DNA of 63,804 nt, filler included, from Octopus bimaculoides (Eukaryota): assembly GCF_001194135.2 (NCBI RefSeq). It is 5 parts of 4 records of this genome, joined end to end, with 100 filler letters (N's around TTAATTAATTAA, not from the genome) between each part and the next. Parts side by side here need not be neighbours in the genome. Positions count along the whole stretch, not along the records: positions 1 to 21,223 come from NC_068984.1; positions 21,324 to 28,449 come from NC_068984.1; positions 28,550 to 49,891 come from NC_068981.1; positions 49,992 to 58,838 come from NW_026401271.1; positions 58,939 to 63,804 come from NC_068988.1. One strand, written 5' to 3'. Below, one piece after another: positions 2,481 to 60,861 of the stretch. Each line of letters begins with the position of its first letter. Within the stretch, counting starts at the first letter, position 1. The notes under the pieces were generated by a model. It made no database searches and was not told the DNA's origin. It saw nothing but the letters and a program-made list of their open reading frames with translations. The position numbers and the translations under genes were made by a program.

Positions 2481-4892
2481 TCTGTATCTGTATGAATATC
2501 TCCTGCTAAAACTGCAGTAATTTTAGAGATTTTCCCCAGCCAAGTCAATTTCCCTATCATAAAATATTAGGTCATGGTGGGAGAGTCATTTACCTCTAAA
2601 CGTTAAAGTTAGTGCCAAGAGAAATTCCTGCCTTGAATCTCCCAACAATCAGTGCTTCTGCTATTTGAAGTGAGGCACTATAATTACACACACAGAAATA
2701 CCTACATGTTACTATCCAAGAGTTTTTTCAACCCGTTATTCGCATGCTCTTAATTATAGCTGTGTGTGATGCGTTTCGAGATTCATTGTTCCAGAAAATT
2801 TATACACTGCTCGTAGCCTAGATCAATGCTAGATTTCGATTTTGCTTACGAATCCTCAAATGTAGGCGTCAAGATACGATCCATCGAATCTTTACTGACC
2901 AGTCAGAAATGCAACGATTCTATTATCTGCGCCTCCTACGTTTCAATGCGTCGAACGTAAATATATTTAATTATATCACTCGTCTTTTGCCTATGGAGTA
3001 CTCAAGGTATATATAGTAACGATCACGTATGAATACAATTAGTTTCATTGCTTTCGTTCGCAAATCTTTTAGCCAGAATTGAATTTTGGTTGCCATATCA
3101 GTCTATTATACGGAAAGTTTATATTCAAAGCTTCACCATATTATAAGAAACCATGGATTTATCAATCACAATTTCTTACATGTCTCAGTATGCTAATAAG
3201 CTATCTGCACTTTTTGCAGTGCGTAATCTGAACTGAGAACCAAGATATTCTCCCATTAAAAAATTTAATGATGTAGCTATTAATTCTGTAAGAGAGGTAT
3301 TTACTTTTTTTCCTTCAATTTAATCGCCAGGTTACTAGTATTCGATGCGACTAGTCTTAGTCTGTAGGGATAAATTTAAATCTTGCAAAAATTACATTAA
3401 AATCTAGTTGCCTTGGTATTTAACAATTCCTTATTTATTTTGTCAGTAAACTGATAACGCAACTCGAAACATTTTAACTTACTGCTAAACATTTATTGAG
3501 CACTCGTTGTATTCCTTTAAAATGGTCTCGACCACTTCCACTTCCGTAGTGTTCATCACAGTTACGATAACATTCTACATGTGGTGATGCAATTCTTCTG
3601 AATTGCAGCCTGAAATCGATACAGTTTAAAAATTCTAACTTTCGAAATAACAGCCCGACATCTAGCACGGCAAAGAGAACGAACACTTTTCGTTCGCTTT
3701 TGCTTTAGTGATGGATTCTTTACTTTACAAACGCAGCCTTCATGTTTTGCATTGAAGAAATGGTCAAGGATCTTCTCTAATCACATTGTTTAGATTGCTA
3801 GCTATCTCACACCTCTGATATATTTCTCTCTATAACTAGCATTTCATAAATAACCATGAATTTTGACCTTAGCGCTTTCTTTAAAGCAGCCCAACACCAC
3901 TTGTTGTTCGTCAAACACCAACTGCTGTTTAACTACATCCCTTAACTGGTTTCTGGAGTTTTTTCACACCGGGAAGGAGGTAGTATTCACCGTTTAGTCG
4001 GGCTTCTATGAAAAAACCCTATCTAAATCAACCACGTTGATCACAACTTTGAAGCCTCTGTTGCCGACCGTTTTTAATTGTGGATACCATATACAATTTA
4101 TGTCCGCTGATCGTATGAAAACTTTATTCAGTAAGATCTATTTAAGCCACTGTAGTTGCACCATGTCCACACTAGCATATTTTGGAAAATCCAAGCAGTA
4201 TTTTAAATAAAATTATCTGGGCATGTTCTCGACGCCTTTTTGCACCCCATGTATTATGACTTAATCCGTACAATATGATTGTACATCTAATATATCAGAT
4301 TATCCCATAATTAATGTCGTTGTTTTGTAATAGGCTTTGAAGAAATAAAAAAAAGCAAATAAGGTACCAATTTAATCAACTCTATATTTCCCATCTGAAC
4401 CAATAATATTCTTCCAAAACTGTAAAAGGTTTTTTCTTATACCGTTCCTATAGAAATCAGTTGACTTAGGAGAGAAAAACTCTTGAAAGTCCGTTTCAAG
4501 TGCCTCTAAGGAATTGTATTCTTTTCCATCATTAAAACTTTGCAAGCTTCGGAATAAATGATAATCCGAAGAAACAAGATCAAGAGAATACAGATGTGGA
4601 AGCCTTCTCCAACCTCGCTCCTCAATCTTGGCATCTGTGAATCTTGCATTAAGAGGTCTGGTATAGACATGATGGACAATCACACCATTTCGATTGACGA
4701 GAGAGCATCTTCTTTCTGTTTTTCATTCAGTTTGTCTAGTTTTGGTGCAAGGTTTCAAAGTGTATCACACCAAACGTGTCCCACTAAACGTTGAACAAAA
4801 TTTTCCGTGGATGAATATCTTGTTTTGAATGCGGTCTTGATTGTTCTCCTGGTTGAAGCCATTGATGTCGTGGTTTAACAATTTTATAGTGT

Positions 4893-5123
4893 TATTTCTT
4901 TACTACCCACAAGGGGCTACACACAGGGAGGACAAATAAGGACAGACAAACGGATTAAGTCGATTATATCGACCCCAGTGCGTAACTGGTACCTATTTAA
5001 TCGACCCCGAAAGGATGAAAGGCAAAGTCGACCTCAGCGAAATTTGAACTCAGAACGTAGCAGCAGAGGAAATACCGCTAAGCATTTCGCCCGGCATGCT
5101 AACGTTTCTGCCAGCTCGCCGCC
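4893..5123 (-). mobile_element. tRNA-derived SINE family A (GGCGAGCTGGCAGAAACGTTAGC head; CCTTTCATCCTTTCGGGGTCGAT core), tail type 1
   Basis: Complete copy flanked by a 7-bp TSD ATAGTGT (4886-4892 and 5124-5130), inserted into the mariner ORF. Confidence 0.9.
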
Positions 5124-5708
5124 ATAGTGTATCCACCTTATAGTGTATCCACCCTTCATCACCGGTCACTAGCCTGCTAAAAAATTGGAGGAGTTTTTTT
5201 CTCTCACGTGAATAAAGAGCAATGCTGATATTGACACGTTATTTTCAATTGTTACCACTCAGTTCACGTGGAACTCATTTGGCAAGTTTAGACACGATTT
5301 CAAGTACTTGTAAATTGCGATAGATAGGTGATGACGACGAATTAACCTTTTCTGCTAACTCTTCAACAGTTGCATATTGATTTTTCCAGTAGCTGTATTT
5401 AACACATCATTATCAAAAGAGATAGGGCACCCAGAGCAGCGGTCCTCCTCCAAGCTAAAGTCGCCTTGTTTACATTTATGGAATCATCGTTGGCGCTTGC
5501 GAACATTTCTTGCACATTTTTACAGCATTTGTTGCATTGTTGCCTTTTGTATACTCGTAAAGCATGACGTCTCTAAGGTGTTCTTCTGTGACCTCCGAGG
5601 GGCTATTAAAGCAACAAGTTATTATTTGTGTGTCTGAATCTATCTATCTGAAGGTAGAATCTATCTAACTGATGCTTTTCTTGTTCAATGCTATTTATAT
5701 ACCTATGG

Positions 5709-7561: not shown

Positions 7562-7877
7562 AACAAAAAAAAACATTCGTGACATTAGCCCGCGAATATC
7601 CAATTGGCAGAGTAATTTGAATTTCCGACGAAATAGTTTACCGTATTAATCCCATTTTTTTTCCGTTCGAGACAGCACTTAAGTACTTTCAGGTATACAC
7701 CTTGCAGTATGCTATTTGAAGCTCGTTCACAGTATTCGGGCACGTGATTTCAACAGAAGTATGGAGGTGTATGCTGCAGGATTTACTGCAGGATTTCCTT
7801 TGTGTTCGTATAGCAAAGTAGAAATGGGAAACAAGGTAAAAAAAATAGAACTGGAATACTGGAGGCAGTGTAATATG

Positions 7878-8020
7878 CTTTATTAATAAAGCAGCAAAGA
7901 CATCACAAAAAGTGTTACTCAGAGTTTCACGTTACTGTTCGTCGGACGGAAGCCAAAACTGTCCGACGAACGGAAACGAGTAACAGATTTTGTGATGTTT
8001 TTGCAGCTTTATTAATAAAG
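7878..8020. repeat. 143-nt foldback (long inverted repeat) containing a hammerhead-like core
   Basis: Arms CTTTATTAATAAAGCAGCAAAGACATCACAAAA...GTTCGTCGGACGG and CTGTCCGACGAAC...TTTTGTGATGTTTTTGCAGCTTTATTAATAAAG around a 9-nt loop. Related copy at 37992-38056. Confidence 0.85.
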
Positions 8021-8446
8021 TATATATNNNNNNNNNNNNNNNNNNNNNNNNNNNNNNNNNNNNNNNNNNNNNNNNNNNNNNNNNNNNNNNNNNNNNNNNN
8101 NNNNNNNNNNNNNNNNNNNNNNNNNNNNNNNNNNNNNNNNNNNNNNNNNNNNNNNNNNNNNNNNNNNNNNNNNNNNNNNNNNNNNNNNNNNNNNNNNNNN
8201 NNNNNNNNNNNNNNNNNNNNNNNNNNNNNNNNNNNNNNNNNNNNNNNNNNNNNNNNNNNNNNNNNNNNNNNNNNNNNNNNNNNNNNNNNNNNNNNNNNNN
8301 NNNNNNNNNNNNNNNNNNNNNNNNNNNNNNNNNNNNNNNNNNNNNNNNNNNNNNNNNNNNNNNNNNNNNNNNNNNNNNNNNNNNNNNNNNNNNNNNNNNN
8401 NNNNNNNNNNNNNNNNNNNNNNNNNNNTATATATGGACACACAGAC

Positions 8447-8517
<71 letters not shown>

Positions 8518-8518
8518 C
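8447..8518. repeat. (GATA)n microsatellite
   Basis: Perfect tetranucleotide run next to an assembly gap. Confidence 0.95.
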
Positions 8519-9052
8519 ACTCTCTCTCTCTCACACACTTATAATTTGTTGAAGTACTTGTTGATGCTGGTATTACTACTATTGGACTTCCTCATCAATA
8601 TTATCATCCCCATCATCATACATCCACCAGCGTCCCTTCAATTCTATCATCATCATCATTATAGTTTTCATTATCATCATCTTTATTACTCCCACCCGTG
8701 ATCATAGTTGTCACCGTTGTTTTTGTCGGATATGCTTAATATGTGTTATTGCATTTGTTCAACGTTTTGCAGATATTCTTATGAATGAATTATTTAATTT
8801 TTGCAGATAAATAAATGATAGAACAGAAATAAGAATTGGAAATAAAGAAGTTGTGAAATAACAATAGGAGAGAAATAGGAGAAGAAACGCATGAAAACAG
8901 ACGATGAATGAAGAAACAAAAGCGGATTTATTGAATATCTCATGTTTTACGGAAATAGTTGAAAGAAAGGAATTAGCTGTAGAGATATTTGCACGAAAAA
9001 AGCTGCTGGAGGCCAGAAGCCCACCAAGTGAGATGTCTTTTGATGGACAATT

Positions 9053-9053
9053 C

Positions 9054-9112
<59 letters not shown>

Positions 9113-9197
9113 CAACAACAGCGACAACTGCTTTCTAGCCAGCAAGAGATACACAACAATACAACAGAAATAATAACAATAATAATAATAATAGTAA

Positions 9198-9265
<68 letters not shown>
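9053..9265. repeat. Compound (AAT)n/(AAC)n/(AGT)n trinucleotide microsatellite
   Basis: Read directly; explains the poly-N/T/Y/L ORFs here. Confidence 0.95.
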
Positions 9266-9319
9266 ATCTGAGGACTGTGGATCGAAACAAGTTTCAAGAA
9301 AAAAAAACATCATCAGCAA

Positions 9320-9600
9320 TAAATAGTGTTACTGATAAGATTTCATGGGAATACATTAAAGATAGCAACACATTGTTATTCGGAGGTGTTAATGTAATTT
9401 CGGAATTGTTGGAGAAAGGAAAAAGAGAAAAAAAGAAGAACTAGCAGATACTCTGGTAGAGAATGTGGGTACTGATGAAGATGGGAGACTTTTCGAAGAT
9501 TAGACCGATGGTAGCTAAGAAAATTGAAGAATGGTAGAGGAGATGAAATTTATCAGGTAAGTAAAAAAACAGATAAAGGTGAGTGGAATGGAGACAATGG
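9320..9600 (+). mobile_element. Degenerate R4/Dong-like (RLE-type) non-LTR retrotransposon, N-terminal region
   Basis: WEYIKDSNTLLFGGVNVISELLEKGKREKKKN*QILW*RM resembles the pre-RT region of R4/Dong-like elements. The RT fragment at 10790 is on the same strand. Confidence 0.45.
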
Positions 9601-9652
9601 TCGAAATATGATAAAGCAGAGATAAAGAGAAAAGTAAGGAATACGATGAAAT

Positions 9653-9815
9653 TGCACAGACGTGGCTGTGTAGTAAGAAGCTTGCTTCCTAACCACATGG
9701 TTCAGGGTTCAGTCCCATTGCATGGCACCTTGGGCAAGTGTCTTCTACTATAGCCTCGGACTGACGAAAGCCTTGTGAGTAGATTTTGTAGACAGAAAAT
9801 GAAAAAGTCCATCGT
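9653..9815 (+). mobile_element. SINE family B head (tRNA-like plus CORE-like CTTGGGCAAGTGTC)
   Basis: Close match to the copies at 9982 and 52018. Confidence 0.85.
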
Positions 9816-9981
9816 ATATATATATAAATATATAGATATATATTGTTTCAAATTGTTTGAAAAACCTACACGACTAGGTGAAAAGCGCTTCATTTAATAT
9901 GTGACATTAATAAAAATCTGTAAATGTACAAACATCCAGGTTTCTGAGTACCTTAATTAAAATTTTATATATATATATATA

Positions 9982-10485
9982 GGCGCAGGAATGGCTACGT
10001 GGTAAGTAGCTTGCTTACCAACCACATGGTTGTCTTCTACTATAACCTCGAGCCGACTAAAAACTTGTGAGTGGATTTGGTAGACGGAAACTGAGAGAAT
10101 CCCGTCATATAAGACCCGGCAAGCCAAGTAAGAGCGTTGCNNNNNNNNNNNNNNNNNNNNNNNNNNNNNNNNNNNNNNNNNNNNNNNNNNNNNNNNNNNN
10201 NNNNNNNNNNNNNNNNNNNNNNNNNNNNNNNNNNNNNNNNNNNNNNNNNNNNNNNNNNNNNNNNNNNNNNNNNNNNNNNNNNNNNNNNNNNNNNCGAGCG
10301 TGGCCGTTTTCGTGCGGGTGACACGTAAAAGCACCCACTACACTCTCTGAGTGGTTGGCGTTAGGAAGGGCATCCAGCTGTAGAAACTCTGCCAAATCAG
10401 ACTGGAGCCTGGTGTTGCCATCCGGTTTCACCAGTCCTCAGTCAAATCGTCCAACCCATGCTAGCATGGAAAGCGGACGTTAAAC

Positions 10486-10521
<36 letters not shown>

Positions 10522-10750
10522 ATATATATATGTATGTATGTGTGTGTGTGTCTATGTGTCTGTGCTTGTCCCCACACCATCGCCTGACAACCGATGCTGG
10601 TGTGTTTACGTCCCCGTCAATTAGCGGTTCGTCAAAGAAAACCGATATAATAAGTACTAGGCTTACAAAGAATAAGTCCTGGGGTCAATTTGTTCGACTA
10701 AAGGCGGTGCTCCAGTATGACCGCAATCAAATGAATGAAACACACAAAAG
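9982..10750 (+). mobile_element. SINE family B (head 9982-10110, microsatellite, tail 10555-10750) interrupted by a family G element
   Basis: Head with an internal deletion; tail TGACAACCGATGCTGGTGTGTTTACGTCCCCG...AAGGCGGTGCTCCAG...ATGAATGAAAC. Confidence 0.8.
10111..10521 (+). mobile_element. Family G non-autonomous retroelement with (GAT)n tail (probably RTE-mobilised)
   Basis: GGCGTTAGGAAGGGCATCCAGCTGTAGAAA motif and CCCATGCTAGCATGGAAAGCGGACGTTAAAC(GAT)n 3' end. Other copies at 50354 and 56841 on the minus strand. Spans an N-gap. Confidence 0.8.
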
Positions 10751-10789
10751 AATAAATATATACATTGATAAAACGTAGTAAATGTACTG

Positions 10790-11215
10790 GAATAGATTTA
10801 CGTATAAGAAATATATAAATATCTGGCAATACTGGAAAGCGGCAAAAATCAAAAGTACAGAAAGGAAGCAAACTATCAATAAAGTATATTTTTACTGGAT
10901 GTAGACAACTCTGAAAAGCAAAGCGAATGCAAGGAAACAGCATAGAAACAATCAATTTGAAGGTAAGATTAGTGCTTAAACATAGCACAGGATTTATTGA
11001 TTGGAGAAAGGAAGAGCTAAAGGATATCGTCAGAAAAACGTCGGTGCATCACACAATGCACAGGAGCATGCATCCCAATCGGATGTGAGGTGGATATAAT
11101 GGAAGGAGGAAGAGAGTTAATGAGTGCGGAAGAGTTAGTAGAACAAGGAAAGATAATTCTAGGTTCCTATTTTGAAGAAAAAGAACACTCCTTAAGATGG
11201 TAGTTCGCGAAGGTC
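10790..11215 (+). mobile_element. Degenerate R4/Dong-like non-LTR retrotransposon, RT C-terminal/thumb region
   Basis: EIYKYLAILES...KHSTGFIDWRKEELKDIVRKTSVHHTMHRSMHP...EGGRELMSAEELVE matches the YKYLG...YSAGII.W...EL..LDRKTR..LHP...GGRGL pattern; frameshifted. Confidence 0.8.
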
Positions 11216-11314
11216 TGTTTACAGAATGTGTAGAACACAGAACAGGAAAGAAGAAAATCTGGGGAATTGGAAATCAATATTTGACGGACGGTCGTTTCAC
11301 TCAAGCAGTTTATT

Positions 11315-50485: not shown

Positions 50486-50822
50486 CACCTCTTTAATTAC
50501 AGGTGAGGTGGCAAAGAATTCTGCCGGTTTGTTCACTTGCCTGTGTCCCAGAGGTGTAGCAAACACACTTTGGAACTGTTCATTCAGTATTTCATTTATC
50601 CTCATTGAGTTTCCTGTGAAAGAGCCATCCTTTTGGAAGAGGGGCACTGTCTTATAGCATACTGAGGCTGTTCCTTTGAAAAAGTTAAAGAAAGCTTTCG
50701 GGTCCAACTTGATATTTTCTATAGCCCACACTTCCTTATTAGCTCTCCCTTTTTCATGAGACTGATGCAGACTTTTCTCAGTCTCCAACAATGCTCTCTC
50801 CAGGTGGGACTTTTCACTAATT
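50486..50822 (-). mobile_element. CR1-type LINE ORF2 fragment (EN-RT linker)
   Basis: EKSLHQSHEKGRANKEVWAIENIKLDPKAFFNF...PLFQKDGSFTGNSMRINEILNEQFQSVFATP matches the IK.NPK.F.Y...IGPL...DG......A.ILN.QF.SVFT pattern. Confidence 0.85.
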
Positions 50823-51011
50823 TTAACCCTTTTGTTACCCTATTTCTGTTGAGATGTTCTGTGTTTCTTTCAATTAATTTTAAATATAACAAAGAATTTA
50901 GTAAAATAACTTCATTATCATTAAGCTAATGTTAGGAACATAAATTGTGACTAAGACATTCATACTAAAGAGCTAGGGTGGTTTCAGCCAGGCTGGTATC
51001 GAAAGGGTTAA
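50823..51011. mobile_element. piggyBac-type MITE, copy 1 (TTAA...TTAA)
   Basis: TTAA-CCCTTTTGTTACC ... GGTATCGAAAGGG-TTAA; TIR 11/13. Confidence 0.88.
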
Positions 51012-51155
51012 ATACACCTCTACATTTGGGCAGATGGACATTAGAAGCAGTTGGAAGGGTGTGGATTGAACGAAATTGAGGCTATTATTTCTAGCATATA
51101 GACAGACCACATTGAGGTCTCCTTCTCTCATGTCTTCTGCTGGTTATTTTTCTTC

Positions 51156-51386
51156 TTAACCCTTTTCTTACCATATTTCTTTTGAGATGCTCTGTGTTTC
51201 TTTCAATTAATTTTAAATATAACAAAGAATTTAGTAAAACAACTTCGTTATCATTAAGCTAATGTTAGGAACATAAATTGTGACTAAGGTTTGGAGGAAG
51301 ATTTTAATTCAAAACTTATGAAAACAAGACATTTGTACTACAGAGCCAGAGGTGGTTTCAGCCGGGTTGGTATCAGAAAGGGTTAA
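51156..51386. mobile_element. piggyBac-type MITE, copy 2
   Basis: TTAA-CCCTTTTCTTACC ... GGTATCAGAAAGGG-TTAA; interior nearly identical to copy 1 but about 40 bp longer. Confidence 0.88.
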
Positions 51387-51985
51387 GGGTTTTGATTCAG
51401 GTGGCTCACAATATTTGTCCGTCGTCTCATATATAATATGTATAATAGAATCATTATATAATGTGTTTTTCAACTGGATGTAAACATGTTAAATACCAAC
51501 AGAAATTAACCTACATTTTATCGAACAATGTAGAAAAAGAGACATAGCCATTTTTTCAAAGACACCTTGTTCACACAACGAATCTCTGAAAATACACTTC
51601 TTGCTTGACTGCTGTGTGGACATTTTATACATACATATATACATACATACATACAGACAGACAGACAGACAGACAGGCAGCTAACACCTCTTATGTCCCT
51701 CTATGTCCCTGCCTTAAAGCTTTCACTTTATACATACCAACTCAATTTGATTCGTCCAAAGTTGAAAGACAACTGTTGTTATATTCCTGTCAATTGTATT
51801 TGTAACTAGCAGAAATATCCAGCATTGCCTGGATTAAAGAAAATAATGAAATTCGAAAATGCCTTTTAGATCTATAACAGGAGTTACACGACAGTTATTT
51901 TGTGATCTTTGCTACCCTGGTATCTATTAACCAATCTATTTTGTCCGAGTTAATTATTAGCTTAGAGAAAATAAATACATATAAT

Positions 51986-52017
<32 letters not shown>

Positions 52018-52019
<2 letters not shown>

Positions 52020-52165
52020 CGCAGGAGTGGCTGTGTGTTAAGTAGCTTGCTTACCAACCACATGGTTCCAGGTTCAGTCCCACTGTGTGGCATCTTGGGC
52101 AAGTGTCTTCTACTATAGCCTTGGGCCGACCAAAGCCTTGTGAGTGGATTTGGTAGACGGAAACT
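52018..52165 (+). mobile_element. SINE family B head (runs into a gap)
   Basis: GGCGCAGGAGTGGCTGTGTGTTAAGTAGCTTGCTTACCAACCACATGG. Confidence 0.9.
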
Positions 52166-52437
52166 NNNNNNNNNNNNNNNNNNNNNNNNNNNNNNNNNNN
52201 NNNNNNNNNNNNNNNNNNNNNNNNNNNNNNNNNNNNNNNNNNNNNNNNNNNNNNNNNNNNNNNNNNNNNNNNNNNNNNNNNNNNNNNNNNNNNNNNNNNN
52301 NNNNNNNNNNNNNNNNNNNNNNNNNNNNNNNNNNNNNNNNNNNNNNNNNNNNNNNNNNNNNNNNNNNNNNNNNNNNNNNNNNNNNNNNNNNNNNNNNNNN
52401 NNNNNNNNNNNNNNNNNNNNNNNNNNNNNNNNNNNNN

Positions 52438-52830
52438 AGAAAGGATCACAAAAGTACAGCTCCCAAAATTACTGCAGAGCTTAATGACCACCTCGAGAAC
52501 CCAGTTTCCAAAAAAACTATTTGCCGGGAGCTGCATTCAGAATGACCACTACTTTCAAAAGCAAACATTGCAAAGCATTTAGAGTGGAGTAAAAATTGAC
52601 AGAATTAATCCCAAGAGCATTGGAAGAATGTTATTTTGTCAGACGAGTTGTCCTTTACTTTATTTCCAGCCACCAGCGGAGTATACATGTGGAGACTGTG
52701 CAAAGAAGCCTTCTTCCAACTGTTAAACATGGAGGAGGATCTGTGATGATCTGGGGAAGCGGGGTTGTATCCTGGAAATCCGCTGGCCCAATGGTTTCCC
52801 TTCATGGTATAATTAAGTCAAGACTATGTA
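52438..52830 (+). mobile_element. Tc1 transposase fragment
   Basis: RKDHKSTAPKITAELNDHLENPVSKKTICRELH...HWKNVILSDELSFTLF...PTVKHGGGSVMIWG. Confidence 0.9.
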
Positions 52831-53810
52831 AGCATGTGTGCATGTGCATGTATGTGTGTGGGTGCATGCATGCATGCATGTGTGTATGCATGCGTGCATG
52901 AGTACGCGCACGTGTGTGTGTGTTTGTGCGTGCACATGCACATGTGCATGCGTGTGTGTGTGTGTGCAGGCGCGTGTGTTTGCGCACACGCATGTCTGTT
53001 TTTCTGTTTCTGTGTTGGCCACACATCACTTGACAACTGAAGCTAGGCCATTGGCATCTTAGCAACATGGCATCTTAGCAACATGGCAAAAAAGAAAAAA
53101 AAAAANNNNNNNNNNNNNNNNNNNNNNNNNNNNNNNNNNNNNNNNNNNNNNNNNNNNNNNNNNNNNNNNNNNNNNNNNNNNNNNNNNNNNNNNNNNNNNN
53201 NNNNNNNNNNNNNNNNNNNNNNNNNNNNNNNNNNNNNNNNNNNNNNNNNNNNNNNNNNNNNNNNNNNNNNNNNNNNNNNNNNNNNNNNNNNNNNNNNNNN
53301 NNNNNNNNNNNNNNNNNNNNNNNNNNNNNNNNNNNNNNNNNNNNNNNNNNNNNNNNNNNNNNNNNNNNNNNNNNNNNNNNNNNNNNNNNNNNNNNNNNNN
53401 NNNNNNNNNNNNNNNNNNNNNNNNNNNNNNNNNNNNNNNNNNNNNNNNNNNNNNNNNNNNNNNNNNNNNNNNNNNNNNNNNNNNNNNNNNNNNNNNNNNN
53501 NNNNNNNNNNNNNNNNNNNNNNNNNNNNNNNNNNNNNNNNNNNNNNNNNNNNNNNNNNNNNNNNNNNNNNNNNNNNNNNNNNNNNNNNNNNNNNNNNNNN
53601 NNNNNNNNNNNNNNNNNNNNNNNNNNNNNNNNNNNNNNNNNNNNNNNNNNNNNNNNNNNNNNNNNNNNNNNNNNNNNNNNNNNNNNNNNNNNNNNNNNNN
53701 NNNNNNNNNNNNNNNNNNNNNNNNNNNNNNNNNNNNNNNNNNNNNNNNNNNNNNNNNNNNNNNNNNNNNNNNNNNNNNNNNNNNNNNNNNNNNNNNNNNN
53801 NNNNNNNNNN

Positions 53811-54327
53811 TATCTATCTATCTTTATCACTCTGTCTATCTATCTATCTATCTATCTTTATCACTCTGTCTATCTATCTATCTATCTATCTTTATCACTC
53901 TGTCTATCTATCTATCTATCTATCTATCTTTATCACTCTGTCTATCTATCTATCTATCTATCTTTATCACTCTGTCTATCTCTCTCTCTCTATCTTTATC
54001 TCTCTCTCTCTCTATCTATCTTTATCACTCTGTCTCTCTCTCTCTCTCTCTCTTTCTCTCTATCTATCTATCTTTCTATTTTTATCACTCTGTCTTTCTC
54101 TCTTTCTCTCTCTCTCTCTCTATCTATCTTTCTATTTTTATCACTCTGTCTTTCTCTCTCTCTCTCTCTATCTTTCTATCTTTATCACTCTCTCTCTCTC
54201 TATCTACCTATCTTTCTATCTTTATCACTCTGTCTCTCTCTATCTACCTATCTTTCTATCTTTATCACTCTGTCTTTATCTTTCTCTCTCTTTCTCTCTC
54301 CCTCTCTCTATCTTTCTATTTTTATCA

Positions 54328-54371
<44 letters not shown>

Positions 54372-54452
54372 TTCTCTCTCTCTCTCTCTATCTATCTTTC
54401 CATTTTTATCACTCTGTCTTTCTCTCTCTCTCTCTATCTTTCTATTTTTATC

Positions 54453-54529
<77 letters not shown>

Positions 54530-54560
54530 TTCTATCTTTATCACTCTGTCTTTATCTCTC
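53811..54560. repeat. Compound minisatellite: 15 copies of TTTATCACTC(TG) separated by (TCTA)n or (TC)n spacers
   Basis: 15 motif occurrences counted; strong pyrimidine strand bias continues to about 55080. Confidence 0.9.
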
Positions 54561-55825
54561 TCTCTCTCTCTCACTCTCTCTCTCTATCTCTAGTTGTCTC
54601 TCTATCTGTCACTCACTCTATCTTTCTCATTATATGTCATTCCTTACTTGTTTCTTCCTCTCTTCCGTCAATGCTTGCTCTCTCTCTCCCCCTCTCTATC
54701 TCTCTTCATTTATCTATATCTGACAGACTTTCTATTTCACCTCATAAGTCACAGTACAAGTCACTCTCCCTTTCTCTCTCATTCTGTCTTTCTCTTTGTC
54801 TTTCTTTTACTCTCTATCGTTGTCCCTCTCTATCTGTCACTCTTTTTCTCTTTATATATCATTCCTTCCTTGCTTCTTCCTCTCATTCTCTTCTCCTTCC
54901 TCTCTTTCGTCAATGCTTGTTCTCTCCCTCTACCTCTCTTTTTCCCCTCTTTCGATCTATCAATCTCTGACACACTTTCTATTTCACTCCATAAATCATT
55001 CCTTAAGTTTCTCTCTCTCTCTCATTCTTTCTTTCTCTATCTTTCTCTCTCTCTCTCTCTCTTTCATTCTTTCTCTATTTCTCCGTCGCTGGAGAAATCT
55101 TAATCAATAACAATTAACTAACATCGATTATTACTTTTTTAATACAAAACTTTATCCTATCTAACAGCTGTTTCTGCTTCCAATGTCCTATGGTATTGCC
55201 TTTGAAAACTCTGATTACTTCTAAACGTTATGGCACTATCACTCCCTCTTTTTTTTTTAGACCTATTGGCTTATACCGTTATGGTAAATTATTTATTTTA
55301 CTTTTTTTATTATTCATACACTCTGTTACCCCTAAAGATAGATTAACCCACCAATTAATATTTCCAGTTTAGTCATTTACTTAACGTCCTGAAGCGTTAC
55401 ACTGCAAAATGTTATGAATTAAATATATTAAACCTTCATTTTCCTTCTCGAGGTTCTTCCTCTATTCTTTTCCTTATGTATTTCTCTTCACTCTATTGAA
55501 GCTCCATTTATTACAAAATATGACAAATATTATTCTCAGAATTTTCAATGGCAACACTGTAGAACATTGGAAGTAGAAACGGCTGTTGGATAGCATAAAG
55601 TTTTGTATTAAAAAATAATAACCGATGTTAGCCAATTGTTGTTGATCAAGATTTCTCCATTTTCTGCTTAATTTAAATTATATATATATATTTATATAAA
55701 GGGCATTATTATAGAAAAAAATAATAACGCCACACAGTAGACTTCTCAAAATAACCACATTTAGTACCTATGCAAGGAAAAAACAACCAACAGAAGATGA
55801 CCAACTTTCTTTTAAAATAGACTTA

Positions 55826-55887
55826 ATTGCGTATCGACCGATTTCGCGATTACTAGAATGAGTCTAGACTTCGTTCATCAGCACAAT
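55826..55887 (-). ncRNA. Type I hammerhead ribozyme motif with extended stem II
   Basis: Minus strand ATTGTG-CTGATGA-ACGAAGTCTAGACTCATTCTAGTAATCGC-GAA-ATCGGTCGAT-A-CGCAAT: 6-bp stem I, stem II CGA/TCG plus CTAGA/TCTAG, stem III ATCG/CGAT, predicted AUA cleavage between 55832 and 55831. Confidence 0.72.
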
Positions 55888-56184
55888 ATTGTCCCAAAAA
55901 TATATATAAATAAACAGAATTCTCACCTCACCAAAAACGAACACACTACGTATCCGACAGAATAAAGGGAATGAAGTTTATCTGTATATATCTTCATCAA
56001 AGAAGCAGGAAATACTACCGGGTTGTTATAAACAAATAATTATATTCTTGGGAATAGAAATTTCCCTAATGAATTNNNNNNNNNNATATATATATATATA
56101 TATATAAACAATATATGAGTATATTCATATACATGTACATGTATGTACATACCTTCATCTACATGTACATATAGATACATAACT

Positions 56185-56420
56185 GGGTACATGACGTGGC
56201 AAGAGAACATGGACAAAAAGATAAACAAGGTACAACAAACAAGCAAGCCACATAGAAACATCTCCTTCATCAGCTGCCACCATTAAAACACCGGCGTTTC
56301 GAAGAATTAAGGCAGTACGCATCGTTGAAATGGTTCTTCCCACGAACACAAATTAAATCATTTTCGTGGAGGGTAGTGGCGGACGGAAAACAAGACAGGA
56401 AAACGAAACGGTACATATGT
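56185..56420. repeat. Dispersed repeat (Penelope terminal-repeat-like) with GAAA and CTGATGA boxes on the minus strand
   Basis: CCTTCATCAGCTGCCACC...CCGGCGTTTCGAAG; layout like the neighbouring 56470-56710 repeat. Confidence 0.5.
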
Positions 56421-56469
56421 ATATGTACATACTTTCATGTATATGTATATACATATGCATATATGTAAG

Positions 56470-56710
56470 CACAGGATGTCACAAAACATAAACAACAAAA
56501 AATACGAAGTACGAGGACAAGGAATAAGGGTTTTTTTTTGCAAGCAATGAAAGAATCAAATGGAAAACAAAACAAGCAACACAACGAACGACCCTTCATC
56601 AGTTGTCGGCTGTTTTTCTAGTCTGTATTTCAAGCAGTTCGCGACAATACTACGCCTTCAATAAAACAGTTGCTCCCGCAAAGCAAATTAAAATAAAAAT
56701 TTGCGATCTT
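56470..56710 (-). repeat. Dispersed repeat, second copy of the 46720-46975 family
   Basis: Reverse-complement alignment by eye over about 240 bp. Confidence 0.75.
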
Positions 56711-56840
56711 GCGGAGGGTTAAGATTTCTGGCAAAAACAGGACAGTGAAAAGAGACAGGAAGGGCTGCTAAGCCTGAATGAGGTTGTGGTGGCGAACGCG
56801 AAGAAACAAGTCTGGAAAGGAGACAGAGAAAAATGATATA

Positions 56841-56985
56841 TCATCATCATCGTTTAAGTCCGTTTTCCATGCTAGCATGGGTTGGACGATTTGACTGAGG
56901 ACTGGTGAAACCAGATGGCTACACCAGGCTCCAATCTGATTTGGCAGAGTTTCTACAGCTGGATGCCCTTCCTAACGCCAACCAC
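56841..56985 (-). mobile_element. Family G 3' fragment
   Basis: (CAT)nCGTTTAAGTCCG...CCATGCTAGCATGGG...GGATGCCCTTCCTAACGCC. Confidence 0.88.
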
Positions 56986-57031
56986 CATATATAGGAGTGG
57001 CTGTGTGGTAGATAGACAGTCAGACAAACAG

Positions 57032-57065
<34 letters not shown>

Positions 57066-57104
57066 NNNNNNNNNNGACAGTAAGATAAACAGATAGACAG
57101 AGAG

Positions 57105-57240
57105 ATAGTGGAGGGCGGAAGTCTTGCCCAGAGACCGATAAAATAAGTACCAGGTTTTTAAAAAAAATGTAAATATTGGCGTTGATTTGGTTCAAGGCGG
57201 TGCCCCAGCATAGACGCAGTCTAATGATTGAAGGAAGTGG
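57105..57240 (+). mobile_element. Diverged family B tail fragment
   Basis: GAGACCGATAAAATAAGTACCAGG...AAGGCGGTGCCCCAGCAT...GCAGTCTAATGA. Confidence 0.65.
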
Positions 57241-57442
57241 AACATGTTATAATATATATATACTTTTAGAAGGAGATAAATATATATATATATATATGTA
57301 CACTTATAAACACGCACACACAATAACGGTGAAGACAAATCGAAATCTATGGCTTCGTTTCCACTTCTTCACTATGTTGCTTGCCCTAAATAGCTTCCTT
57401 TATGATAAACCATAAGTGTCAAACAAGCACAAGATAACGGGA

Positions 57443-57480
<38 letters not shown>

Positions 57481-57981
57481 TATGTTTATGTACGTGTTTG
57501 TACGTGTATGTAAGTCTATATAAACCCTTTATTTATCTTTTTGTACCATTGATAAGCAAAAAAATTATCGGAACAAATTTGGTATGTAAATAAATGTTAC
57601 AAACTCGAAAGATGACTACACATCTTTAGATTCAATGTACGTAGACACTATATACATACATATTTGTATATATATATACATATACACTCCTTGTTTTTTT
57701 ATATTTCTCTTTATTTTTCTTTTGTATAATATNNNNNNNNNNNNNNNNNNNNNNNNNNNNNNNNNNNNNNNNNNNNNNNNNNNNNNNNNNNNNNNNNNNN
57801 NNNNNNNNNNNNNNNNNNNNNNNNNNNNNNNNNNNNNNNNNNNNNNNNNNNNNNNNNNNNNTATATATATATATATATATATATGGATGGATAGGTAGAT
57901 ACAGATCTCTAGGTAGCTAGCTTGATAGATAGATAGATAGTTAGATAGGTAGATAGATAGATAGATAGATAAGATAGCTAG

Positions 57982-58018
<37 letters not shown>

Positions 58019-59799
58019 AAGGGGGAGAGGGAGAGGGTTAGCACCAATTAATTCCAAACTTTACCAACTTCCACCATGAAACCTACACAGTTTTTTGCTG
58101 ACGTAAGCAGCGAGTTGCAGCGAATCACTGGAGTGAAGTCTTGCACTCAGACAAACGGAGTCTTGGCACCGAGGAGGATGTTAAAACGAGGACGAAGGGA
58201 AAAAATAAATGAAAAGAGGTATGTAACGAATGCGATGCACCACAGGTATAATTGGGGGAATATTTTGTGGTGGAGATATAAGAACCAGGTGCCTTAACCT
58301 GTTGCTCTATATTTACTGAAGTTTCACGAAGTAATAGTAGCTACGATGCCCTCAAATTTCCATCTCTTCTCATCTTTCTTTCTTCTCGCTTCCTCTCTTG
58401 CACTCAGAAAATTAGTTTTGTTCCCGCAGTTTGAACACACACACACACATACACCATAAAATATCCTGCACAGTCGTATGTGCACCCACTTTACGCGCAC
58501 GTGTGTTGCTCTGTCGTGTTGATGTACTGGACATTTTTGACCTAGGGTTAAGCAACAAGAGTCGTGTGTGGTGTGAATATATGAATGTGTATACATGTGT
58601 GTGGATGTATAAATGTGTATATATATATATGTATGTGTGTGAGTATTTGAATGTATGTGTCGGGCGATCACACACCCTGTCAGTATATATATGTATACAA
58701 TTAGAAGCTTTCACTACAGCATGAGAGCATTTTAGCTCATATTTCTAGCAATCTAGGTGTTCTAAAGAGCCTTAGTCACATTTAGTAACAATTATAGTTT
58801 TCCTTTGACTCAACATATTGCGCATGGCTGTCTCTCTCNNNNNNNNNNNNNNNNNNNNNNNNNNNNNNNNNNNNNNNNNNNNTTAATTAATTAANNNNNN
58901 NNNNNNNNNNNNNNNNNNNNNNNNNNNNNNNNNNNNNNTGATATAATATAATATAATATAATATAATATAATATAATATAAACGCAGAAAGAAAGAGAGA
59001 TTAATTGGGAAACGTTTGACAGTCGCTTCCAAGATTCGGCTTGCTTGCAGTCGTCAGTCTGAACTCAACTGCAATCATTGAGTAATCTTTACGTTGAACA
59101 TTAAATTGTATTTTTTATATAACGAGATAAAATCAAATATGAATATATACCAACAAATGTGTGTGTGCGCGCGTGCGTTTGTGTGTATGTATGTGTATTG
59201 TATAATATGCATAATTAGATATGCATACGTGTCAATGGATGAACGTATAGCAAATAGAGAGAACTCTGTACCTCGTAACTTGTACACAAACGTGCTACTT
59301 AAGTTTCATGGCACGGCAGTTATTTGGACGCAAATGGAGTGTAAAGTTGCTCACATTCCAGTTTATCAGGCAAAACATAAACCCCAATAAAGGTCATATA
59401 TATGTATGTATGAATGAATGTATGTATGTATGTATATATATATTGGTGCTTATATATGTGTATGCATGCGTATGAATGTATATTTATGTCTGCGGTGTGT
59501 GCAGGCTTTTTCGGGATACGTTAGTCTTTTATGTAAGAGAAAAACTAGATCTGAGAGCTAAAAACAAATTCTCGGCAAGTAGCAAAACAAAATAGATACT
59601 ATATAGTTGTATTGCTTACACGTATGTCATGTCGTATCGTGTTGGCTGCACGTATAACAGGTGGAAAATTGAAAGAAAAAAAGGGCGGGTTACCCCCTGT
59701 TGGCACCTAAATATATACATACATGAATGTGTGTATCTATCTATCTATCTATTTATCCATCTATCTATCTCTCTGTCTCTCTCTCTACTTATATATATA

Positions 59800-60500
59800 T
59801 ATGAGCTTTGAGCTCATCTGAACAATATTAGCCGTATGAATCGACGCATTGTCGTCTTACAAGGTTGTGATACCATCTGGGAACAATGTTGGTTGTACCA
59901 TAGAACGGACATAATCAGCCTAGATGCTCTGATAATCCTTGGCGTTGACACTGCCATGTAGAGCAACTAAAGAACCAAGAGAATTCTGTGATAAGGCTGG
60001 CCAAGTTATCACAGAATCGCCTCCATGTTTCACGGTAGGCACCAAACAATCAGGGTTGAAGATTTCTTTGAGCCATCTCTAAACAAAAACTCAAAAGTGA
60101 GAAAACAAGGTGAATGATGGTTCATCAGAGAAGATTGTTTTGTTGATCCAGCGACCATTTCTGATAGTCAAGACGTAATTTTCCCGTTGATCAGTGTTGA
60201 TAGGAGACAGTAGAGACTTAATAACTGCAGCCTTCCTATAGTATCCTGCATTGTGGATCCCACAACGAACGGCTTTTGTTGACATAGGGTTGGCAGTTTT
60301 TCTATGGTAGTTCGATGGTCTTTAGAGACAATACGTTTCCTTATTCTGCGATACTTCTCTGCAGGCTACACCTTCCGTCAAGAGTTATGCTTGCCATAGC
60401 TGTCTGTTTTTACCTTCAGTGTTAGAGATTGAAGCTCCAGTCATCCGCGCTCCAACAATTTATCCTCTTTCGAAATCAGATTGGTCGTAAATTTTGACTT
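59800..60500 (-). mobile_element. Degenerate Tc1 transposase
   Basis: RIVSKDHRTT...STKAVRCGIHNAGYYRKAAVIKSLLSPIN...IFSDEPSFTLF...NPDCLVPTVKHGGDSVITW...LVALHGSVNAKDY...*DDNASIHTANIVQ. Confidence 0.9.
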
Positions 60501-60819
60501 ATTCAAATATATATCTGCAAAGAATGAAAAAACAATCAGTGCGCTATATCATGAGGTACAAGGCATACATTATGCAGATGAATACATATATATACAGACT
60601 AGAACAGTTTTGGATTTGCCATTTTGCACACACAAAAAATAATCAAATAAAAAATGGTGCCTCTATTATTTTGTTCAACCTCTCTCTCTCTCCCTCTCTC
60701 TACATATATATATATATATATATATTCATACATACATACATACATATACATATATATGTATATACATACATGTATATATATGTGTGTATGTATATAATTC
60801 TTATAAAAGAATGTTGTTG

Positions 60820-60861
60820 ACAGTGACTTCGAAGTTTCGACCAGCTAACTCGTCGGACTAT
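60820..60861 (-). ncRNA. Minimal type I hammerhead-like motif with U4C variant core
   Basis: Minus strand ATAGT-CCGACGA-GTTAGCTGGTC-GAA-ACTTCGAAGT-C-ACTGT: 5-bp stem I, perfect palindromic stem III, GUC site between 60825 and 60824. Stem II is weak beyond the G10.1-C11.1 pair. Confidence 0.6.

Follow-up and report, generated by a model that had tools for sequence, protein, structure and literature searches.

Decayed type I hammerhead motifs with palindromic stem III in Octopus bimaculoides: likely 3' ends of Penelope-like elements, two of them from abundant families with a C4 core

A stretch of Octopus bimaculoides DNA of 63,804 nt, assembled from five genome parts and referred to here as the window, contains five loci (L1 to L5) with the core order of the hammerhead ribozyme, C(U/C)GANGA...GAAA...UH. 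An initial annotation had described them as a dispersed set of minimal type I hammerheads, possibly mobilised by Penelope-like elements (PLEs). All five loci and the four stem III strings reported for them were found again where it had placed them. The core CUGANGA/GAAA/UH is present in L2, L3 and L4, while L1 and L5 are variants with C at position 4 (C4, as opposed to U4). The window copies are decayed relics. The following parts were recognised:

7903..7950, minus strand: hammerhead relic, arm A of L1 (locus 7911-7950), C4 core, C3 at 7945
7953..8022, plus strand: arm B of L1, an inverted second copy, C4 core, C3 at 7963
7822..7873, minus strand: tail of L1 (about 50 nt), on arm A only, seen from layout and depth gradient
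37985..38112, no single strand: sister copy of the L1 family, head-to-head, tail on one arm
14862..14909, minus strand: arm A of L2, decayed, U4 box, 4-bp stem II, stem III not palindromic
14911..14942, plus strand: arm B of L2, inverted partner with a C4 box (E-value 1.3e-4)
20957..21000, plus strand: L3 relic, U4 core, 6-bp stem I, 8-nt palindromic stem III
55826..55887, minus strand: L4 relic, U4 core, 6-bp stem I, 10-nt near-palindrome
60797..60861, minus strand: L5 relic with 3' end (locus 60820-60861), C4 core, 10-nt palindrome, ends at (TA)n
59016..59062, minus strand: probable sixth relic, older and related to L5, U4 box (E-value 0.22), absent from the initial annotation

The descriptor used for the window combined the core order with a stem III of at least four Watson-Crick pairs and set no minimum for the loop; its thresholds were chosen post hoc, with the loci already seen. 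Dinucleotide shuffles in blocks of 200 and 1000 nt (300 shuffles each) served as controls. Four matches were obtained, namely L1, L3, L4 and L5 and no others, against shuffle means of 0.30 and 0.36 for the two block sizes, and at least four matches occurred in 0 of 300 shuffles of either kind. An excess over shuffled sequence is thereby supported. With at least four pairs in stem I and at least three in stem III, three matches were found, compared to 0.03-0.04 in the shuffles (0/300). Taken by itself, the core order hardly exceeds chance, with 14 occurrences in the window versus 7.3 in shuffled sequence, a count equalled in 5/300 and 8/300 shuffles. An origin of L2, and possibly of L3 or L4, by chance within AT-rich repeat sequence is nevertheless quite improbable. 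The roughly seven core orders per shuffle, the missing stem III of L2 and the restriction of the family analysis to L1 and L5 speak for chance, as do the motif matches in viral contigs, all eight of which are stemless (stem I of 0-1 bp) and attributable to chance. On the other hand, L3 and L4 each combine a 6-bp stem I with a four-pair palindrome, for which 0.03-0.04 are expected per shuffled window, and the L2 box occurs twice, once per arm of an inverted repeat.

The type I order with a palindromic stem III was borne out in four of the five loci (L1, L3, L4 and L5). Their stem III strings are predicted to form self-duplexes of -7.9 to -12.5 kcal/mol and no hairpin alone; in L1, the string is a 9-nt palindrome with an unpaired centre and the cut is predicted after 7916. 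L2 lacks this feature. It is an inverted duplication with 32-nt arms of 72% identity, which remained under the threshold of a strict palindrome scan; among the seven palindromes listed by that scan, one (L1) holds a hammerhead box. No inverted partner arm was found in the window at L3, L4 or L5. Stem I comprises 2 bp in L1 arm A and in L2, 6 bp in L3 and L4 and 5 bp in L5. Stem II is reduced to 2 bp in L1 and 1 bp in L5, broken at the base in L3, which lies about 170 nt ahead of (TA)n, and long in L4 with an A-C mismatch at its base. The notion of intact ribozymes is not supported, as no match in the window has three stems of at least three pairs each when counted from the core. When the descriptor was loosened to allow one mismatch, with at least four pairs in stem I, it returned L3, L4 and L5 only, and free folding of single copies did not yield the hammerhead fold. 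An Rfam search of the whole window gave no hammerhead among the 150 matches listed of 224, which were rejected as microsatellite microRNA noise. In five local scans, the sole hammerhead match was that of L5 to RAGATH-1-hammerhead (22 bits, E-value 0.055, gathering score 56.3).

L1 is a head-to-head duplication with its centre just 5' of the core and C4 on both arms. On arm B, the 5' strand of stem I is intact, 10 nt are deleted and the terminus lies at (TA)n. In the sister copy at 37985..38112, both arms begin 3' of the ribozyme core. Organisms A and E yielded 2194 and 2086 contigs, respectively, with members of the L1 family. The summed depth of 380,074 at the core, versus 41.9 in the unique flank (roughly 9,000-fold), indicates thousands of copies, although it is not a copy number. 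Metagenome contigs gave no match to the L1 motif. The family majority differs from the window copy at 7912 (97%), 7934 (92%) and 7936 (83%), and a loose end at 7947 is shared by 157 and 135 contigs; together, majority letters and loose end extend stem I to 8 bp and stem II to 3 bp, the latter with a GNRA loop. In X1, the three C>T places on arm B are all assigned to other positions, so that C4 is present on this arm in at least 85%. Ten of the 15 contig joints listed (of 32) are arm-to-arm skips with differing breakpoints. Four 'opposite strand' joints between arm A and arm B were considered as inversions and rejected; they are read as continuous copies. A transcript of L1 is predicted to form one long hairpin (-71.6 kcal/mol), which would hide the ribozyme. 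Next to L1, at 7690-7760, is another repeat, distinct from it and with a moderate depth of about 1,000.

The L5 family was found on 1603 contigs in organism A, 1526 in organism E and 1106 in organism B, with a summed depth of 188,436 compared to 51.9 in the unique flank. The window copy differs from the family by a 4-nt deletion in stem II; the loose-end consensus restores an extra U, the pair G10.1-C11.1 and a GC-rich stem II. C4 was read in 9 of the 10 DNA rows spanning the core. Position 5 is A in some rows, and other CpG sites show C>T changes paired with G>A. C4-G5 would accordingly be an ancestral CpG at L5, and since such decay is seen there, C4 is probably the ancestral state and U4 a decay product. 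The probable sixth relic at 59016..59062 was the best of 563 tiles (score 48 versus 38 for the next) and ends some 40 nt short of a TATTA repeat. Neither L1 nor L5 is a short unique island, as both are copies of very abundant families. Their assignment to separate families is supported: both are abundant and keep core and stems in their majority letters. The stem I sequences of the two families (L1 at 7911-7952, L5 at 60820-60861) have a T-A/A-T pair swapped beside the same GT in front of the C4 core, and this likeness suggests a common descent. Furthermore, both families (7822-7890 for L1, beyond 60797 for L5) terminate in a near-palindrome with AATAAA, a few bases after which comes TACTCTAC, possibly a shared 3'-end signal.

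Two PLE remnants had been proposed in the initial annotation, at 26886 and 33500. The first of them was substantiated, and the second is weak:

26880..28180, plus strand: decayed 5'-truncated PLE with the end of the reverse transcriptase (RT), thumb and GIY-YIG region, directly after (TA)13
33106..33750, minus strand: possible second PLE remnant, very decayed, with a WFNPPYS motif (E-value 0.1-0.41)

The former (26.9-28.1 kb) matches P0002 with an E-value of 3e-21, and P0002 shows RWK, DKT and CxCx5C; Pfam assigned no family to three pieces of this remnant, and no hammerhead was seen between it and the N gap at 28450. The latter, at 33.5 kb, reached E-values of 0.1-0.4. Scans with PLE proteins gave weak candidates in 0/19 and 1/1 viral contigs and in 2/44 metagenome contigs, both of them short and with the RT part only. 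Repeats of the (TA)n type adjoin L1 arm B, the sister copy, L3, L5 and the PLE remnant at 27 kb, in a window that is itself rich in microsatellites.

The motifs were compared with known systems on the basis of parts of the cited sources, among them PMC6765202 and PMC6155905. Hammerheads of the Hydra clade of PLEs have a 4-bp palindromic stem III with a centre of 1-2 nt and (TA)n targets (PMC8557442, File S2), and the clade includes Hydra-1_oBim of O. bimaculoides and Hydra-2_aMil (Craig et al. 2021, PMC8557442). The window motifs resemble them in being of type I, with a palindromic stem III and a short stem II, near a 3' end and at (TA)n. By eye, the frame of stem I and stem III in L1 is the same as in Hydra-2_aMil, and a CTCTAC motif is found in the L1 and L5 tails as well as after the Hydra-2_Amil ribozyme, whereas none of the five loci matches the motif listed for Hydra-1_oBim. 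All 26 Hydra rows covered have U4, which the descriptor used there demanded, in contrast to C4 in the L1 and L5 families; moreover, a Hydra-clade motif would be expected 3' of an RT/GIY-YIG open reading frame (ORF) with RWK, DKT and CxCx5C, and no such link was found for the window motifs. Cervera and de la Pena (2014, PMC4209133) have described minimal hammerheads that number in the thousands, are dispersed and variable, and are associated with truncated PLEs. Shared with these hammerheads of PLE pseudo-long terminal repeats (pLTRs) are the many variable families per genome, mostly as single dispersed motifs, the opposite-strand pairs, the palindromic stem III with its dimer model and, in the L5 family, the extra base before G10.1-C11.1. 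The palindromes in the window are longer (8-10 nt), and the core variant given in the part of PMC4209133 covered is U3-A8, not C4. According to the parts of both sources covered, a dispersed repertoire of this kind is known and expected (PMC4209133, PMC8557442). Non-LTR retrozymes consist of tandem units of 170-400 nt with abundant circular RNA (Cervera and de la Pena 2020, PMC7229834; Li et al. 2026, 10.64898/2026.07.22.740005). They share with the window motifs the type I hammerhead, the non-coding nature and the supposed derivation from PLE pLTRs, but no tandem hammerhead units were seen in the window and no abundant circular RNA in the cDNA reads covered. Tandem retrozyme arrays are not supported, as none of the 134 tandem-repeat rows of the window covers a motif.

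It is likely, in our assessment with good confidence, that L1, L3, L4 and L5 are decayed type I motifs derived from the 3' ends of Hydra-clade-like Penelope elements, inserted in truncated form at (TA)n, with L1 and L5 belonging to abundant C4 families. PLEs are known to leave inverted copies truncated at the 5' end and tails on one side only; an inverted truncated copy with a tail on one side is present in L1 and its sister copy, and an inverted arm at L2. The head-to-head copies, varied breakpoints, one-sided tail, (TA)n ends and Hydra-like stem III frame point to 5'-truncated PLE 3' ends rather than tandem retrozymes. A PLE protein with RT and GIY-YIG domains would nick (TA)n and copy the RNA from its 3' end, and copying would stop or invert after about 60-130 nt, leaving stubs of ribozyme plus tail, single or head-to-head. 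Since core sequence is retained in the stubs both before and beyond the cut site, the RNAs from which they were copied had probably either not been cut at this point or been ligated again. In the source elements, tandem ribozymes would pair via the palindromic stem III and be cut slowly as a dimer; this known model fits since the stem III strings form self-duplexes but no hairpin. By now, erosion has affected most copies, chiefly at CpG sites.

Dedicated short non-autonomous elements (SINE-like, i.e. resembling short interspersed nuclear elements, or solo retrozyme monomers), which start at the ribozyme, have their own transcription and borrow PLE proteins, overlap with this scenario in mechanism. 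Consistent with such elements, similarity within the L1 and L5 families is lost immediately upstream of stem I, where the loose ends become heterogeneous, no ORF link was found, and solo retrozyme monomers have been reported in vertebrates. The window holds no tandem hammerhead unit, however, and varied breakpoints and a sister copy beginning 3' of the core are what truncation predicts. Own transcription is also poorly reflected in RNA: cDNA reads matching L1 or L5 numbered 553, 499 and 138 of the 11-13 million per run (with some 6% of each run covered, and in libraries that may lose small uncapped RNA), mostly less than 90% alike and on both strands. The structure favours truncated ends of autonomous PLEs, and dedicated non-autonomous elements appear unlikely.

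A family-wide C4 core in two abundant families of predicted ribozymes would be a modest new variant. In the literature covered, C4 is known only as a rare and weakened viroid variant, and the descriptors used for PLEs exclude it. The U4C viroid variant has the same core change (Perreault et al. 2011, PMC3088659), rare there and in the majority in the L1 and L5 families. No PLE family with a C4 core was found in the sources covered, which do not include Lunse et al. 2017 and Arkhipova et al. 2017, where C4 variants may be shown. We tentatively propose, as a possibility held with less than even confidence, that two PLE-like families spread to thousands of copies in this animal lineage with a working C4 core, that C4 was selected and is functional in dimer-type ribozymes, and that surveys for CUGANGA missed a large share of animal hammerheads.

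Several results weigh against a PLE origin or a working C4 core. The family analysis covers two of the five loci, and its depth values are sums, not copy numbers. None of the five loci reached the gathering score in the local Rfam scans, and neither the window nor the contigs listed revealed a link between any motif and a PLE ORF. The base of stem II in the L1 family is A-U, not G-C. On L1 arm A, the rows listed contain no variant of C4, but 11 more rows exist, including two G>A in X1. C4 was read in two of the three DNA loose-end rows over the L1 core and U4 in the third, and the only RNA row at the L5 core also reads U4. Agreement in the loose-end consensus is low, at 0.50-0.67 overall and 0.50-0.53 for L5. 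Reads on both strands were obtained at L1 and L5, and RNA ends did not accumulate at either of the predicted cut sites in three cDNA runs, which is a weak test. In the part of PMC3088659 covered, the activity of the U4C variant in vitro is considerably lower, with infection still permitted.

Some of these observations would be accommodated if the C4 families had kept the fold but lost cutting, and if the PLE protein used this fold as a signal for recognition or pausing. The lowered in vitro activity of U4C (PMC3088659), the missing G10.1-C11.1 in L1, copies that span the cut site where no RNA ends occur, and the spread of Naiad PLEs without canonical ribozymes would agree with this. Loss of cutting is still rather doubtful, as two families retain every other core letter together with all three stems, U4C supports viroid infection (PMC3088659) and PLE hammerheads are slow in any case. 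Should the C4 core cut, current counts underestimate the number of ribozymes, and dimers allow more variation in the core. Should it not, PLEs are able to spread even when their hammerhead fold does not cut, a point relevant to the role of the ribozyme in these elements.

The window also contains palindromes without a hammerhead box, with arms of 28-39 nt, at 14685-14746, 15509-15569 and 30417-30498. No host gene was recognised in the window. Fragments at 4372-4722, 20454-20834, 52450-52900, 59800-60470, 8895-9500, 43946-44287 and 50378-50839 presumably derive from mariner/Tc1 transposases and proteins of long interspersed nuclear elements; four of them were scanned against Pfam and none reached the cut-off. 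SINE-like repeat copies are located at 4957-5127, 19370-19835 and 33984-34330, and we take them to resemble octopus SINEs.

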